Below the pieces are notes generated by a model. That model had not been told where the DNA came from. It searched no databases and worked only from the letters and a program-made list of their open reading frames with translations. Both the position numbers and the translations under genes were made by a program. A stretch of 64,000 nt of DNA from Bacteroidia bacterium (GTDB taxonomy: Bacteria; Bacteroidota; Bacteroidia; M30B66), in contig OZ257142.1 in the NCBI GenBank assembly GCA_965279035.1, forward strand, positions 1,344,001 through 1,408,000, written 5' to 3'. How positions within the stretch are numbered: position 1 is the first letter of the stretch; each line of letters begins with the position of its first letter. Of the stretch, positions 16,184 through 21,851 are shown one piece after another.

Positions 16184-16536
16184 GATTCCATCACGATGCT
16201 CACTCCGGCAACTTTGCCTTCTATCGGAGGATTTAACTTCGTTACCTTGATTTTTGTTTTACCTAAGACCGGAAAATTCATCCGCAGACTATCCAAAATG
16301 CGTTTTGCCACATGTTCCAATAGCTTCGAAGGAATCTTCATTTCCTTCTGTATCAAGGCATACAAAGCCACATAATCGAGTGCCTCCGTTAAAGAATCAG
16401 TATTGGCCGCTTTGCTCAAATCGGTCTCTACTTCCAGGTCAATACGAAACCATTGTCCATCCTCGCGCTCCTTGGTATACAGCCCATGGTAGGCAAAGAA
16501 CTCCATGCCCTCGAGGATAATCTTCCCTTTGCTCAC
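16180..16536 (-). CDS. folB: Dihydroneopterin aldolase
   Basis: FFAYHGL..ERE.GQ.F..D, LDY, LLEHVA, KLNPP. Confidence 0.93.
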   Translation of the reverse strand: MSKGKIILEGMEFFAYHGLYTKEREDGQWFRIDLEVETDLSKAANTDSLTEALDYVALYALIQKEMKIPSKLLEHVAKRILDSLRMNFPVLGKTKIKVTKLNPPIEGKVAGVSIVMES

Positions 16537-18074
16537 GCAAACTTAGTTTTAGTATACTCCAAGGCTTTGTTAAAACGTGCTGCCACTTCTTCTTTCCCCA
16601 ATAAGCTACACACTTCAAACATCGATGGTCCTGCCGGTAAACCCGTAATTAAAATCCGAAATCCCTGAAGAACCTGACCGATTCCTACTCCAATCGATTC
16701 CAAATAGGCTTTGGATGTCGCTTCTAAATTAGCTGCTGAATAATCATTCGTTGCTGTTAATGCATCGCGCCAGCCTTCCAAAATCCCTTGTGTTTCGGGC
16801 TTCCATTTCTTGCTCAATGTAGCTTCATCCCAAGTGGTGGGTGCTTCAAAAAAGAAACGCGAATGTTCTAAGAAATCGTTCACGAAATTAGCTCGCTCTT
16901 TTACTAAGCCTACTACCGTAGTCACATACTCAATCGGACGATTAAATCCAGCTGCCACAAGTAAAGGCATAAACTCCACCGCTAATTCGGCATCCGAATG
17001 CTTCAATAAATACTGGTGGTTGAACCATTTCGCTTTTTCAAAATCGAATTTCGCACCTGCCTTGCTCACACGCTCCAAGCTAAACAACTGAACTAGCTCA
17101 TCCAACGAAAACATCTCCTGCGTCGTGCCCGGATTCCATCCCAACATACACAAGAAGTTCAACACTGCTTCGGGATAATATCCTTTTTCGCGGTAACCGC
17201 TCGTCGTATCGCCCGTATGTGGATCTACCCAATTTAATGGTGCCACCGGAAATCCTAAACGATCTCCATCACGCTTACTTAATTTCCCATTCCCATCGGG
17301 CTTCAAAATCAAAGGCAAATGCGCAAACTGTGGCATCACCTCTTCCCAACCTAAATAACGATATAAAAGCACATGGAGTGGGGCAGAAGGCAACCATTCT
17401 TCACCACGAATCACATGCGTAATCTGCATCAAATAATCATCAACCACATTCGCCAAATGGTAGGTAGGCATACCGTCCGACTTAAACAGCACCTTATCGT
17501 CCATGTTCTGGGTTTGAACCACAATCCATCCACGAATAATATCATGAAAACGCACTTCTTCTTGACGTGGAAGCTTCATCCGAATCACATAAGGCTCACC
17601 CGCATCTAGGCGCCGTTTTACCTCATCTTCCGAAAGTGTGACCGAATTCTTCATCGACATACGCGTAACGGCATTGTACTGCGGCGAAGCCACTTTCGCA
17701 GCTGTTAACTTAGCACGCATATCTTCTAATTCCTCAGGCGTATCAAATGCATAATAGGCATGACCGCTCGCTAGCAATTTTTCGGCATACTCTCGGTACA
17801 TTGCCTTGCGCTCACTTTGACGGTATGGCGCATGCGGACCACCATGCAGTGGACTTTCACTTGGGTTAATTCCCAGCCAGTTGAGGGCTTCCATAATATA
17901 CGCTTCGGCACCGGGAACAAAACGGTTTTGATCGGTATCTTCAATACGAAGAATAAAATCGCCCCCTAATTTGTGGGCAAAGAGGTAATTATAAAGAGCC
18001 GTACGAACTCCTCCAATATGCAGGGTTCCGGTAGGACTAGGAGCAAAACGAACACGGACGCGACGGTCGGTCAT
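16533..18074 (-). CDS. gltX: Glutamate--tRNA ligase
   Basis: RVRFAPSPTG.LHIGG, LRIEDTD, HVIRGEEW, KLSKR. Confidence 0.97.
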   Translation of the reverse strand: MTDRRVRVRFAPSPTGTLHIGGVRTALYNYLFAHKLGGDFILRIEDTDQNRFVPGAEAYIMEALNWLGINPSESPLHGGPHAPYRQSERKAMYREYAEKLLASGHAYYAFDTPEELEDMRAKLTAAKVASPQYNAVTRMSMKNSVTLSEDEVKRRLDAGEPYVIRMKLPRQEEVRFHDIIRGWIVVQTQNMDDKVLFKSDGMPTYHLANVVDDYLMQITHVIRGEEWLPSAPLHVLLYRYLGWEEVMPQFAHLPLILKPDGNGKLSKRDGDRLGFPVAPLNWVDPHTGDTTSGYREKGYYPEAVLNFLCMLGWNPGTTQEMFSLDELVQLFSLERVSKAGAKFDFEKAKWFNHQYLLKHSDAELAVEFMPLLVAAGFNRPIEYVTTVVGLVKERANFVNDFLEHSRFFFEAPTTWDEATLSKKWKPETQGILEGWRDALTATNDYSAANLEATSKAYLESIGVGIGQVLQGFRILITGLPAGPSMFEVCSLLGKEEVAARFNKALEYTKTKFA

Positions 18075-18266: not shown

Positions 18267-18923
18267 TTAACAGGAAACCTTTACAAAAATTCGTTTAATC
18301 GCACCATTTTGATCAACAGCCTTTACTACAAGGTTTAGTGGTGTGCCATTTTTCTTGTAAAAAACTCTCGAATGTATTTGCTTTATAAATCCAACTTCCT
18401 GATTGCCTTTAAAAACCCTCACAGCTTGATGGTCGAATTCATTATCAGGTTCAAGTTTATACTTTAATACATCACCTTTATTTACACTGTTTGCAGGCAA
18501 ATGAAGTGAAGTCAAATTTGCTAAGTCCGTAAGAAAACGTAAATCTTTTCGTGGATTAAAATCCGCCAAAAACTCAAAATTATCAGTTGGATTTAAACCT
18601 TGTGTATGTGCTAAAAGATAAAACTTATCTTCCTTAAAAGCGGTATCTATTTCCCAGAAATCATAAAAATCAGAAATGTCTGAACGTTCAGATTTCATAA
18701 TTCTTTGTCCAAAAACTTCAAGGACATTACTCGTATATTCTTTGGAGATATCTGGAAACTCTGTGTATGGAGAAAAGCCAGCCGCTTCAGCGGCTTCAAC
18801 ACCTTTAGGGATATACGAAAAGCGAACACCTTGTATTGCGTTTTTTCTTAAAACACCTACAATATGCCTTCTTTTGCCAAGACCTTCTCTCCAACTAAGG
18901 TATATGTTACCTATCTCCTTCAT
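18267..18923 (-). CDS. HipS-like/HIRAN domain protein (putative antitoxin)
   Basis: N-terminal IYLSW...IVGVL...VRFSY (HipA N-terminal-like); C-terminal LEPDNEFDHQAVRV...VGFI HIRAN motif; 4-bp overlap with the kinase stop. Confidence 0.78.
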   Translation of the reverse strand: MKEIGNIYLSWREGLGKRRHIVGVLRKNAIQGVRFSYIPKGVEAAEAAGFSPYTEFPDISKEYTSNVLEVFGQRIMKSERSDISDFYDFWEIDTAFKEDKFYLLAHTQGLNPTDNFEFLADFNPRKDLRFLTDLANLTSLHLPANSVNKGDVLKYKLEPDNEFDHQAVRVFKGNQEVGFIKQIHSRVFYKKNGTPLNLVVKAVDQNGAIKRIFVKVSC

Positions 18924-19879
18924 GAGTATTGATCGTATATTTCCTTCAGCTTTTTGAACCGCAAATCTAGTAATTCCAAAACCAATTGCTTTCTCTCTTT
19001 TGGAAGGATGTTATTATCTCCAATTTCTTGAAGCTTTACATCAACGTTTATTAAACGTTTTTCTATTTCAGATTTATCAAATTTTTCAGTGACCCTATTC
19101 AAACAACTTAAAACAAAATCTTTTATCCCTTCCAATTGAAGCAAGTTAGTGATTAACTCAAAGTGAGTTACTTTATTATTTTCCCAGTGAATCTCTGATA
19201 ATCCTTTAGAAACGTATTTCTTTATTTCATCTTTATTGGAAAGAAAAATTGTAACGCGTTCATCTCTTAATTCTCGACCAAAACTACAGCCGCTATCATA
19301 GATTGGTGCAAATCGTGTAACCTTTGGAAGCATTAATCTTGACCTCTCTATTTCAGGTCGAATCTTGCCTTTAACAGTATAAATCGATTTTAGAAATTTT
19401 TTTATCCATTTTGGGTAATTTTCAATCTCTTTATTTTCAATAGCTTTTGTAACTATACTAACAGAGTCCGAAATAACTGAATGTGTATTAATTATAGCCC
19501 AGTTTTCCTGATGTCTATCACTGTTACCAATTAATGCATCAAATACAATTGTTTCGATTAAATCTTTTAAGTGTTTTTCCTTTTTAAAGGAAATAAGTGC
19601 ATTTAAAATTAAATCGAAATTATATTGATTGCGAAGTTTAGTATTTTCAGGATTAAAAGTCGAATCATAGGCTTGTAAATATTTTCCTCCCTCAATTAAT
19701 TCTTCAGAAGCTTGATCTATCATGGACTTGGAAATACATCCAACAACTTCACCTCTTATCGCAATATGGTAAGGTAGGATATCAAAGCCTAATTGCATCC
19801 CAACTTCTGATGCAATTATTTCTGACCAAAATTCGTATTTATAATCCCTTTCACCTGATTTAAACGATTGTTTGAAGAA

Positions 19880-21250
19880 CACACCCGTCCAAGACGTTTG
19901 TATAACGAAAATACAATCCTGATTTGATGCGAGATTACTCATCAAAGAACGCTCTTTTGAAAATTAAACCCTCTATAATTTAAAAAAGGGACATTTGTAA
20001 TTCCAGTTTATCAATTTCGTCATCATCTAAAAAGGGTTTATCAAGCCATTTTTTGAGGTCAATTTTCACAAAGAGATTTAATCGAATAAAGGACACCAAA
20101 TTTGAGAGGTGCCAAGAGTGTTTTGCTTCCTTTTGAAGTGTCTTTAAAAGCAGTATGGTGATTAGTGCTGTCCAAATCTGTATCAGAACAGCATTCATGC
20201 TGGTTCCTATGAAAGACTTGATTTTCAGGTGTGTTTTGATCTCCTTGAAGAACGATTCGATGCTCCATCTACGTTTATATAGTTCTGAAATGGTCGATGC
20301 TGTCCAAGAAAAATTGTTTGTAAGAAGTTCAAGATATATCTGTTGTTCTTCATCCCAGATCTGAACCATTCGGAGCTTTTGCGGGTATTTTTCTTTTGAT
20401 TGAGGTAAACTCAAAAAGCCTTTCCAGTCGTATTGCAAGTCTGGATTTGCTTCATCGGTTGGGCTCTTAGTTCGCTCATAAAGTTCAAACTGAATGTTTT
20501 CTTTTCCTCGAATAACAAAGAATACTCCTTGTTCATCTAATTTTCTCATCCAGTTAAAATCGACATATCCTCTATCAGCTACAACAATGCTTCCTGTGGG
20601 AAATTCAATATCATGTGCTGCATTTACATCGTGCTTTTTGCCATCACTCAAATCAGCAAAAACGGGCATACAGCCGTCAAAGTCAAGGACTGTGTGAAGT
20701 TTTATAGCTCCCTTCTTCTTTCGAAATAGTGCCCAGTCGAACACTTTAAGACAAAGGTCAATCGTGGTTGAATCGAGCAGATAGATTTTACGTTTGGGAA
20801 GCAGCTTTCGGCTTGTTTTTAAGGTTGATTCAAACTGCTCATACAAGTTAAAATACATCGCTTGAAACAGCTCCCAGTTGCGATGTTGGTTATTATATGC
20901 CAACGATGATCGCCTCATGGCTTTTGACACTCCCAGATGATTTAAATCGCCTGTTGCTGATCGCATTCCATTGCAAACGTCATTTAAGCTATTAGACTTG
21001 GAAAACTGGCAAAAAACCATTGTCACAAAGTGAGACCAAGCATCATTGCCTTTACAATGTTTATTGGACTCAAACTTTTCTACTAGTTTATTGAAAGAAT
21101 CTCGCTTAATTTTTTGGAATATCTGAGCAAATAATGTGATCTTCATGCCGGAGTTGGTTTATGTTTTTGTGTCGTAACTCAAACATACCGGATTTAATCC
21201 GGACCAACTCTATTTTTTTACCCTATTTTAAAACGTCTTGGACGGGTGTG
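19880..21250 (-). mobile_element. IS4-family insertion sequence, complete
   Basis: Perfect 20-bp IRs CACACCCGTCCAAGACGTTT / AAACGTCTTGGACGGGTGTG; 9-bp TSD TTTGAAGAA at 19871-19879 and 21251-21259. Confidence 0.93.
19980..21146 (-). CDS. IS4-family transposase (DUF4372 + DDE)
   Basis: LLDSTTI, IKLH, ADRGY, YKRRWSIESFFKEIK (YREK motif), IQIWTALI. Confidence 0.95.
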   Translation of the reverse strand: MKITLFAQIFQKIKRDSFNKLVEKFESNKHCKGNDAWSHFVTMVFCQFSKSNSLNDVCNGMRSATGDLNHLGVSKAMRRSSLAYNNQHRNWELFQAMYFNLYEQFESTLKTSRKLLPKRKIYLLDSTTIDLCLKVFDWALFRKKKGAIKLHTVLDFDGCMPVFADLSDGKKHDVNAAHDIEFPTGSIVVADRGYVDFNWMRKLDEQGVFFVIRGKENIQFELYERTKSPTDEANPDLQYDWKGFLSLPQSKEKYPQKLRMVQIWDEEQQIYLELLTNNFSWTASTISELYKRRWSIESFFKEIKTHLKIKSFIGTSMNAVLIQIWTALITILLLKTLQKEAKHSWHLSNLVSFIRLNLFVKIDLKKWLDKPFLDDDEIDKLELQMSLF

Positions 21251-21377
21251 TTTGAAGAAATACAATTGTCCATCTTCTGGGTTCAGATAGATTTTTTTAT
21301 TTCGAGTGCCTCCCGTATTCAACCAAGATTGTTCTATCCATTCAGTAATAATATATAGTTTAGGCATAGGTTAAATG

Positions 21378-21659
21378 CTATTTATTTCTATTTTTAATAG
21401 GAATTGATTCATTATTAATTACCGAAAAAATGTGGTTAATTATTCCTATTTCGGCACTATTTAGTTTTTTCTTTAATGCTAGTTCTTTTAATAAACTCTC
21501 TTTGCCAATTTGTTTTAGAACAGAGGTATTGCTTTTATAAGCGATGGGTATTATTTTTTCTATGACCTCAAGTGCCGCAATTCTTCTGTCTGAGGCGAGG
21601 TCCCTTTCTTCACTTTTGAGTTGTTTAGTGATTTCTGATGTAATCTCTTTCCATTTCAT
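21378..21659 (-). CDS. Hypothetical 93-aa helical protein, first gene of the kinase-HIRAN operon
   Basis: ORF ends 10 nt before the kinase ATG; no recognisable motif. Confidence 0.6.
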   Translation of the reverse strand: MKWKEITSEITKQLKSEERDLASDRRIAALEVIEKIIPIAYKSNTSVLKQIGKESLLKELALKKKLNSAEIGIINHIFSVINNESIPIKNRNK

Positions 21660-21812: not shown

Positions 21813-21851
21813 ATTAGTTGCAAAGAATCATTCTTATTCTTTGCAACTAAT
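21813..21851. terminator. Long hairpin downstream of the T9SS cargo gene
   Basis: ATTAGTTGCAAAGAAT-N7-ATTCTTTGCAACTAAT, 16-bp perfect stem. Confidence 0.7.

Follow-up and report, generated by a model that had tools for sequence, protein, structure and literature searches.

A putative hipIN-type kinase–HIRAN pair in a Bacteroidia bacterium, with its kinase gene split by an IS4-family element and preceded by a facultative small gene

The module described here lies at positions 18,267 to 21,659, on the minus strand, of a 64,000-nucleotide stretch of a Bacteroidia genome (assembly GCA_965279035.1, contig OZ257142.1, positions 1,344,001 to 1,408,000), and that whole stretch is called the window in what follows. 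It comprises a gene for a protein of 93 amino acids (aa), here p93, a kinase gene split by an insertion sequence (IS), and a gene for a 218-aa protein with a HIRAN domain. The best explanation that we can offer, with a rough probability of 0.65 for all its parts taken together, is that the kinase–HIRAN pair is a chromosomal module of the hipIN type, equivalent to the PADLOC candidate PDC-M03, in Bacteroidota; that its kinase gene has been split by the IS; that it would work by a mechanism modelled on HipBST; and that p93 is an accessory to it. The pair would be a somewhat longer Bacteroidota member of a kind already described. The first-pass annotation of this DNA had referred to earlier bioinformatic accounts of such pairs, among which is hipIN (Gerdes 2021; PMC8262856). 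The sole new element is the facultative upstream p93 module.

On the minus strand the order is p93, 10 nucleotides (nt), the 5′ piece of the kinase gene, the IS, the 3′ piece of the kinase gene and the 218-aa gene, and the stop of the kinase and the start of the 218-aa gene share 4 nt (ATGA, 18920–18923). The list of open reading frames (ORFs) and their translations agree to the base with the layout, coordinates and ATGA overlap that had been given before. The features are as follows.

21378..21659, minus strand: p93, 93-aa ORF (ORF list)
21251..21367, minus strand: 5′ piece of the kinase gene, codons 1–39, with the Gly-rich loop TGGTRNK (translation)
18920..19879, minus strand: 3′ piece of the kinase gene, 319 aa, with SEIIASE, the catalytic DRHQENW and the Mg-site IYDSG (translation)
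19880..21250, no strand assigned: IS4-family insertion sequence, 1371 base pairs (bp), with perfect terminal inverted repeats of 20–22 nt (repeats and repeat contig)
19980..21146, minus strand: IS4 transposase, 388 aa, intact, in the same orientation as the kinase (ORF list, family models)
19871..19879, no strand assigned: target-site duplication, copy 1, TTTGAAGAA (direct repeat, and IS ends from the repeat contig)
21251..21259, no strand assigned: target-site duplication, copy 2 (direct repeat)
18267..18923, minus strand: HipN-like gene, 218 aa, HipS-like at about 4–124 and HIRAN at about 123–218 (PADLOC, structure matches)
18920..19945, minus strand: 341-aa ORF with a TTG start, which begins inside the IS (ORF list)

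The split kinase gene and its insertion sequence

The 5′ piece of the kinase gene encodes 39 aa that end in FFK and the 3′ piece 319 aa that begin with FFK, and the motif stands at both ends because the duplicated 9-bp target itself encodes FFK. In all eight related Bacteroidota loci that contain both parts of the kinase (L001–L008; tblastn) these pieces abut in a single frame, with a 9-nt overlap that equals the duplicated target, the 5′ piece being 62–79% identical to its counterparts; in four of these loci (L001, L002, L003 and L005) the intact kinase is an ORF of 355 aa. In the freshwater-metagenome run X3, a 658-nt contig with about 91% identity connects position 19868 directly with 21249 and so skips 1380 bases, the shorter side of the junction being 55 letters long; this is the empty site in a natural relative. 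The kinase that had been rebuilt from the two pieces has the same length of 355 aa.

The ends of the element could be fixed in two steps. The arms of an inverted repeat of 22 nt (19878–19899 and 21231–21252, 100% complementary according to the repeat finder) overlap by a few bases with a direct repeat of 11 nt (19869–19879 and 21249–21259, at a spacing of 1380, a multiple of 3), so that the letters by themselves leave the IS ends ambiguous by 2–4 nt. A collapsed repeat contig in the isolate-type run X18 covers exactly 19880–21250, which sets the length of the IS at 1371 bp and that of the target duplication at 9 bp, precisely as previously delimited. The 20-nt terminal repeat of the IS occurs twice in the window against 0.02 occurrences expected, and the transposase matches the model NF033592 with 254 bits (cut-off 115), and DDE_Tnp_1 and DUF4372 as well; the transposase score, the inverted repeats at both ends and the duplicated target together place the element in the IS4 family. 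In run X18 the word depth is 1346.9 on its contig and 96–107 on the flanks, about 14-fold (a word depth is not a copy number), and further contigs terminate in the IS ends, as would be expected of an active element present in many copies. Activated-sludge and freshwater metagenomes (runs X1–X3) contain copies of about 99% identity in different surroundings, and the 64-kb window contains one copy. The element is, in short, apparently active and widespread.

All 85 invariant columns of a 20-sequence kinase alignment are preserved across the two window pieces, among them those of the motifs named by the first-pass annotation, and apart from the IS the kinase module appears free of decay. Since the invariant columns, the transposase and both kinds of repeat are all intact, the insertion looks recent, and the silencing of the kinase by an IS4 element, recently, can be maintained as it was first put forward. 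With the IS lying between the Gly-rich loop and the catalytic core, a full kinase cannot be made and the presumed toxin arm is dead; the 341-aa ORF, which starts at a TTG within the IS, is an artefact of the insertion, as had been suspected. The 218-aa gene may still be expressed, via read-through from the IS.

A different kind of loss was seen in a Leptonemataceae genome (L009:3872-4191), where the kinase–HIRAN pair has shrunk to a single 88-aa ORF in which the first 65 or so kinase residues lead straight into the C-terminal 38 residues of the HIRAN protein; the toxin has thus been lost here too, by internal deletion. This is a second natural knock-out of the kinase, and the two knock-outs, by the IS in the window and by the deletion in L009, suggest that the kinase is costly.

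The kinase and its HIRAN partner

The kinase matches the PADLOC model PDC-M03A at E 1.9e-47, and the 218-aa protein matches PDC-M03B at E 8.8e-27; the two genes are adjacent, with a 4-nt overlap, as the PDC-M03 definition asks. The kinase has more than 1100 homologues. Among the 120 listed homologues of each protein, precomputed PF07804 (HipA_C) is present on 80 for the kinase and precomputed PF08797 on 76 for the 218-aa protein, and one of the kinase homologues listed is named “HipA domain-containing protein” by NCBI. A profile of the kinase family reaches CtkA (3akj) at E 2.2e-10, in two stretches over profile positions 19–348 and thus nearly over its full length, and touches Legionella HipT (8ezr and 7vkb, about 0.04; E 0.036) on the catalytic loop. 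Both CtkA and HipT align with the family at the Gly loop, at DRH..NW and at I-x-D-x-G, and GGTR, DRHQENW and IYD, the core motifs of the HipA superfamily, are invariant in the 20-sequence alignment. The Gly-rich loop lies at residues 17–25 of 355, that is, at the N-terminus, which implies a kinase that lacks the N-terminal subdomain of HipA, a feature shared with the short kinases of hipIN. These results show the protein, at the level of sequence, to be a short HipA-superfamily Ser/Thr-kinase homologue with an N-terminal Gly-rich loop.

The structure model of the 218-aa protein has a mean predicted local distance difference test score (pLDDT) of 76.7, and its linker at 91–107 is poorly predicted. 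All 15 listed Foldseek matches at E<=1e-3 are HIRAN domains of HLTF or lp_0118. In VIA-align, residues 123–218 match 3k2y (Z 13.0, root-mean-square deviation, rmsd, 3.8 over 94 aligned), HLTF (Z 10.5) and Rad5 (Z 8.9), and besides HIRAN the matches above Z 5 are solely to the N-subdomain of HipA or to HipS, all of them on residues 4–124: HipA N-terminal subdomains 5k98 (Z 7.5, rmsd 3.1, 93 aligned) and 4pu3 (Z 5.3), and the HipS proteins 7vkb_B (Z 6.3) and 7ab3_B (Z 6.2). The invariant N161 and D164 of the family align with the NPYD of HLTF, so that both the HIRAN fold and its N-x-aromatic-D motif are present; in HLTF, a motif of the NPYD type binds the 3′ end of DNA. On the model, then, the protein consists of a HipS-like domain followed by a HIRAN domain, which is the architecture of the partner in hipIN, named HipN by Gerdes et al. 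The identification of a HipA-superfamily kinase with a HipS–HIRAN partner, made at first from the letters alone, is supported by the PADLOC, profile and structure searches.

Distribution and genomic context of the pair

A homologue of the 218-aa protein stands directly downstream of the kinase in all eight loci in which that DNA is available (L001–L005, L007, L008 and L017), and the kinase is rare, being present in 3 of 401 sampled Bacteroidota genomes. In the relatives, the pair comes immediately after a methylase-specificity fusion in L002; in L008 HsdR and a YgjP-like peptidase precede it and a T5orf172 protein follows; a STAND-type NTPase comes after it in L001; and a PemK toxin is near it in L005. 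Such contexts, beside or inside type I restriction systems, support a role in conflict as far as gene neighbourhoods can indicate one. Phage protein families also match both the kinase and the HIRAN protein (PHROGs).

In one of these, phrog_26212, a phage family of 547 positions, the kinase matches profile positions 22–181 and the HIRAN protein 327–518. Since both proteins match this single family, it is a HipL-like fusion of the two, carried by phages or prophages.

The pair could alternatively be a signalling module for DNA damage or replication stress, which would phosphorylate a repair or replication factor and would be neither a toxin–antitoxin nor a defence system. The solved HIRAN domains come from HLTF and Rad5, which remodel forks, and in the window the module lies among housekeeping genes, both of which would suit such a role; however, its patchy distribution (the 3 of 401 genomes), the relatives that lie within restriction systems or alongside them and adjoin further conflict genes, the phage families that match both proteins, and the losses by IS here and by internal deletion in L009, which are typical of dispensable, costly genes, make this explanation very unlikely. 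Together with intact relatives such as L003 and L001, the locus belongs to a Bacteroidota clade that offers clean natural alleles of a predicted defence or toxin–antitoxin type.

The small upstream gene and its family

Eleven homologues of p93 are 69–100% identical to it, and a profile search of 1.84 billion representatives gave 198 clusters at E<=1e-3, 97 of them at E<=1e-10. No model in Pfam, NCBIfam, PADLOC or PHROGs matches it, and at E<=1 neither Pfam nor NCBIfam gave a helix-turn-helix (HTH) or Xre family, so that it is not an HTH protein of the HipB/Xre type by these searches. The p93 gene is therefore, by its conservation, to be regarded as real and as a member of an undescribed family.

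Its link with the kinase is another matter. The ten kinase–HipN loci with visible upstream DNA are the window, L001–L008 and L017, and p93 precedes the kinase in two of them, the window and L003; a homologue is absent from the whole genome in four of the five kinase-bearing genomes searched. The first-pass annotation had described a three-gene module, which as a conserved unit does not survive these counts, and of its view of the third gene the part that stood is that the gene is real, conserved and non-HTH, whereas the part that fell is that it is a fixed partner of the kinase: it is elsewhere found before other cassettes and in fusions. The co-occurrence of p93 with kinase–HIRAN pairs, examined through the neighbourhoods, holds likewise for the window and L003 and fails for the other eight loci. 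Hence p93 does not appear to be a core part of the kinase–HIRAN module.

These counts also bear on the proposal that in this sub-lineage the three genes constitute an obligate tripartite system like hipBST, with p93 in the role of HipB, as a DNA-binding autoregulator that aids neutralisation. It would gain from the identical 10-nt distance between p93 and the kinase in the window and L003, kept although the two copies of p93 are so different, and that distance does speak for a genuine functional connection, at least within this sub-lineage; in three metagenome runs, too, close relatives carry p93 beside the start of the kinase, and p93 is basic, with a model that resembles the core-binding domains of tyrosine recombinases (Z 5–7). 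Set against this are its absence from eight of the ten loci and from four of the five genomes, the copy 72% identical to that of the window that precedes an AlbA_2/HATPase_c_4 gene, the lack of any HTH or Xre match at E<=1, and the fact that PADLOC models PDC-M03 with two genes only, so that we consider an obligate three-part system quite unlikely.

Stand-alone copies of p93 precede not only kinase–HIRAN pairs but also hsdS genes and AlbA_2 proteins: in L010 a copy 72% identical to that of the window is followed by the AlbA_2/HATPase_c_4 gene just mentioned, in L011 a stand-alone homologue is followed by a 158-aa exported protein, in L013 one is followed, with an ATGA overlap, by a type I specificity subunit (hsdS), and in L014 a homologue is followed by a 434-aa protein without known family. 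In this last locus (L014:64-3102) the homologue, of 101 aa, lies between ORFs of 463 and 434 aa, neither of which has a Pfam, NCBIfam or PADLOC match, and the region may be an undescribed cassette. In all six loci compared, the next gene follows p93 closely: at one extreme the two overlap by 4 nt, at the other they are 18 nt apart.

The same domain is found in longer proteins. Among 150 listed representatives of the 198 clusters, 83 have a length of <=115 aa and count as stand-alone, while another 50, of >=200 aa, carry the p93 domain at the N-terminus, and the C-terminal parts of the fused proteins fall into at least 15 unrelated clusters. These include a UDG-superfamily group (n = 11), three tested members of which (P0257, P0266 and P0391, from outside the window) match the deoxyinosine-DNA glycosylase model TIGR04274 with 149–174 bits (cut-off 80); DUF7255 (7), GIY-YIG (2), NOV_C and an 8xMP membrane protein; an ATPase like that of Septu/PDC-M01A (E 2.2e-153); and a 14-member group (A8) with a zinc-ribbon-like CPxC...CxxCG after the p93 domain and no known family, whose profile, made from the 14 sequences, has no match in the PDB. 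No fusion to the kinase or to HipN was seen among the fused forms listed. By these architectures p93 is a promiscuous domain, and the tight spacing in six loci, taken with the fusions, suggests a module that works with whatever follows it.

It could be objected that p93 has no functional relation to the pair and is just a small gene, mobile or regulatory, which shares the same variable regions in its travels; its many different downstream neighbours and its rarity (3 of 401 Bacteroidota genomes) are what this would predict. The tight spacing and the N-terminal fusion to so many kinds of C-terminal domain are, however, the usual sign of a functional link, and make a merely fortuitous neighbour unlikely.

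As for what p93 might do, most of its fusion partners act on DNA, which fits a putative DNA-binding role, and the protein is basic, with an isoelectric point (pI) of 9.7 in a family whose median is 9.5 and in which 68 of 78 members lie above 8. Its model (pLDDT 85.6) has six helices, and about 20 of the 50 rows of the structure comparison are N-terminal domains of integrases or Xer proteins (lambda integrase, XerD, phage integrases) at Z 5–7.1, the best being lambda Int 1p7d (Z 7.1, rmsd 3.9, 78 aligned), a value under the caution mark of the tool for helical proteins. The likeness to tyrosine-recombinase core-binding domains is weak and may serve as a lead only. The ESM Atlas search gave for p93 a score of 0.76, below the mark of that tool, and no usable lead, and a complex prediction for the kinase and HipN of L003 with its p93 homologue (p94) as partner scored 0.00, which is uninformative either way.

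In summary, p93 may be a portable accessory, DNA-binding or regulatory, working with the cassette that follows, a reading for which we see the chances as evenly balanced. A bolder version, possible but doubtful, would make of it a new portable module, perhaps with a DNA-binding fold like that of the integrase core-binding domains, acting as a sensor or switch shared by unrelated conflict systems, so that hipIN plus p93 would be a three-part system analogous to hipBST with a different regulator. The p93 family is the more useful by-product of this locus; in other immune systems, domains common to many types of effector have been the starting point from which sensors and adaptors were discovered.

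Proposed mechanism and points against the reading

If the pair works as its architecture suggests, the following series of steps could be envisaged: (i) the HipS-like domain of the 218-aa protein would stand in, in trans, for the missing subdomain of the kinase, and hold the kinase off; (ii) the HIRAN domain would bind free 3′ ends of the DNA of an invading or replicating phage, and so release the kinase; (iii) the released kinase would phosphorylate an essential translation factor, and growth would stop, as in abortive infection. In the strain of the window the system would be dead on the toxin side. This scheme is built on HipBST as summarised in PMC8262856 and on the proposal of that paper itself, where DNA-end sensing, toxicity and abortive infection are likewise inferred, and to the hold, release and growth arrest taken as one mechanism, by analogy, we would give even odds.

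Several observations weigh against the explanation as a whole. Toxicity, neutralisation, DNA-end sensing and phage defence all rest on analogy, and the literature search returned no experiment on any hipIN or PDC-M03 system, predictions only. In the window the module sits outside any defence island. On the side of the family models, the 3′ piece of the kinase scores 22.3 bits against HipA_C (PF07804), on the catalytic loop and below the gathering score of 30.5, the Pfam HIRAN model gives the 218-aa protein 21.4, below its gathering score of 24.7, and no NCBIfam model matches either the kinase pieces or the 218-aa protein. The closest solved relative of the kinase is CtkA and not HipA or HipT, and its 355 aa exceed the 279–321 aa given for HipG/I/J/M kinases in PMC8262856. 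With regard to p93, the window and L003 share the 10-nt gap between this gene and the kinase although their copies of it are only 38% identical; the predicted fold has its best match (Z 7.1) below the caution mark for helical proteins, and Foldseek with the p93 model returned nothing (best E 5.2 in the PDB and 2.5 in BFVD). Finally, the kinase tree, of nine rows trimmed to the region of the window 3′ piece, with L006 (cut by a contig end) and L009 (a remnant) left out, has no well-supported branch (support 51/72, none starred), so that one or two origins of the link with p93 are undecidable from it, and on these sequences it cannot show whether the two p93-bearing loci share one origin.

Surroundings of the module in the window

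The neighbours of the module in the window are gltX, folB and genes for secreted proteins, with gltX (16533–18074) on the same strand, 192 nt downstream. The adjacency of gltX had been offered as a hint to the target of the kinase; this idea has to be rejected, for gltX is absent from all 20 related loci, and the proximity looks coincidental.

Upstream, at 21815–21849, about 25 nt past the stop of a 747-aa gene, there is an inverted repeat of 14 bp, perfect, around a loop of 7 nt and without a T run, which probably marks the end of the upstream transcription unit, in which case the 93-aa gene would open a new one. The repeat was read from the sequence, the terminator scan not having flagged it; the scan for sigma-70-type promoters and terminators, whose models do not cover Bacteroidota promoters, gave fewer sites than in shuffles.

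Relation to known systems

With the IS4-family insertion sequences, the element of the window shares the type of transposase, the perfect inverted repeats and the 9-bp duplication, and nothing in it is unusual.

Among solved structures, CtkA (JHP0940 of Helicobacter pylori, 3akj) comes nearest to the kinase family in sequence, with the Gly loop, DRH..NW and IxD.G in register, although the relationship is distant; we know of no HIRAN partner for CtkA.

The likeness to hipBST (E. coli O127; Legionella HipBST) is one of organisation: there, too, the kinase lacks the N-subdomain, which a HipS-like protein supplies in trans, and a small third gene lies upstream. In the window, however, the HipS-like domain is fused to HIRAN and encoded downstream of the kinase rather than upstream, the upstream gene is facultative and is not an HTH HipB, and the kinase resembles HipT weakly (E 0.036).

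With PDC-M03 the agreement is closer, as both models are strongly matched by adjacent genes and the relatives of the pair lie in or beside type I restriction–modification (RM) systems. PDC-M03 is, however, a candidate only, one of 145 such candidates (PDCs) that its source (10.1101/2024.01.29.577857) derived from genes lying within BREX, DISARM and type I RM systems and describes as untested, and PADLOC has no model for the 93-aa gene. In a similar vein, a 2025 paper (PMC11706625) notes pairs of HipA and HIRAN genes that adjoin diDNase genes in Actinobacteria, and calls their defence role predicted.

The closest counterpart is hipIN, for which PMC8262856 describes, from bioinformatics, the same bicistronic architecture with the kinase first: a short kinase without N-subdomain 1 and with an N-terminal Gly-rich loop, followed downstream by a HipS-like plus HIRAN partner; and the rows for HipI and HipN in its Table S1 have by eye the same motif pattern as the proteins of the window. 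Its supplement has 14 hipIN modules among 1239, and its HipI subclades are from Actinobacteria, Firmicutes, Proteobacteria and Cyanobacteria. The pair of the window differs in its host phylum, Bacteroidota, the Bacteroidetes rows compared from the supplement being hipBST, and in the greater length of its kinase already mentioned; some loci of the window type have in addition the extra upstream 93-aa gene, and in the window itself the kinase is broken by the IS.

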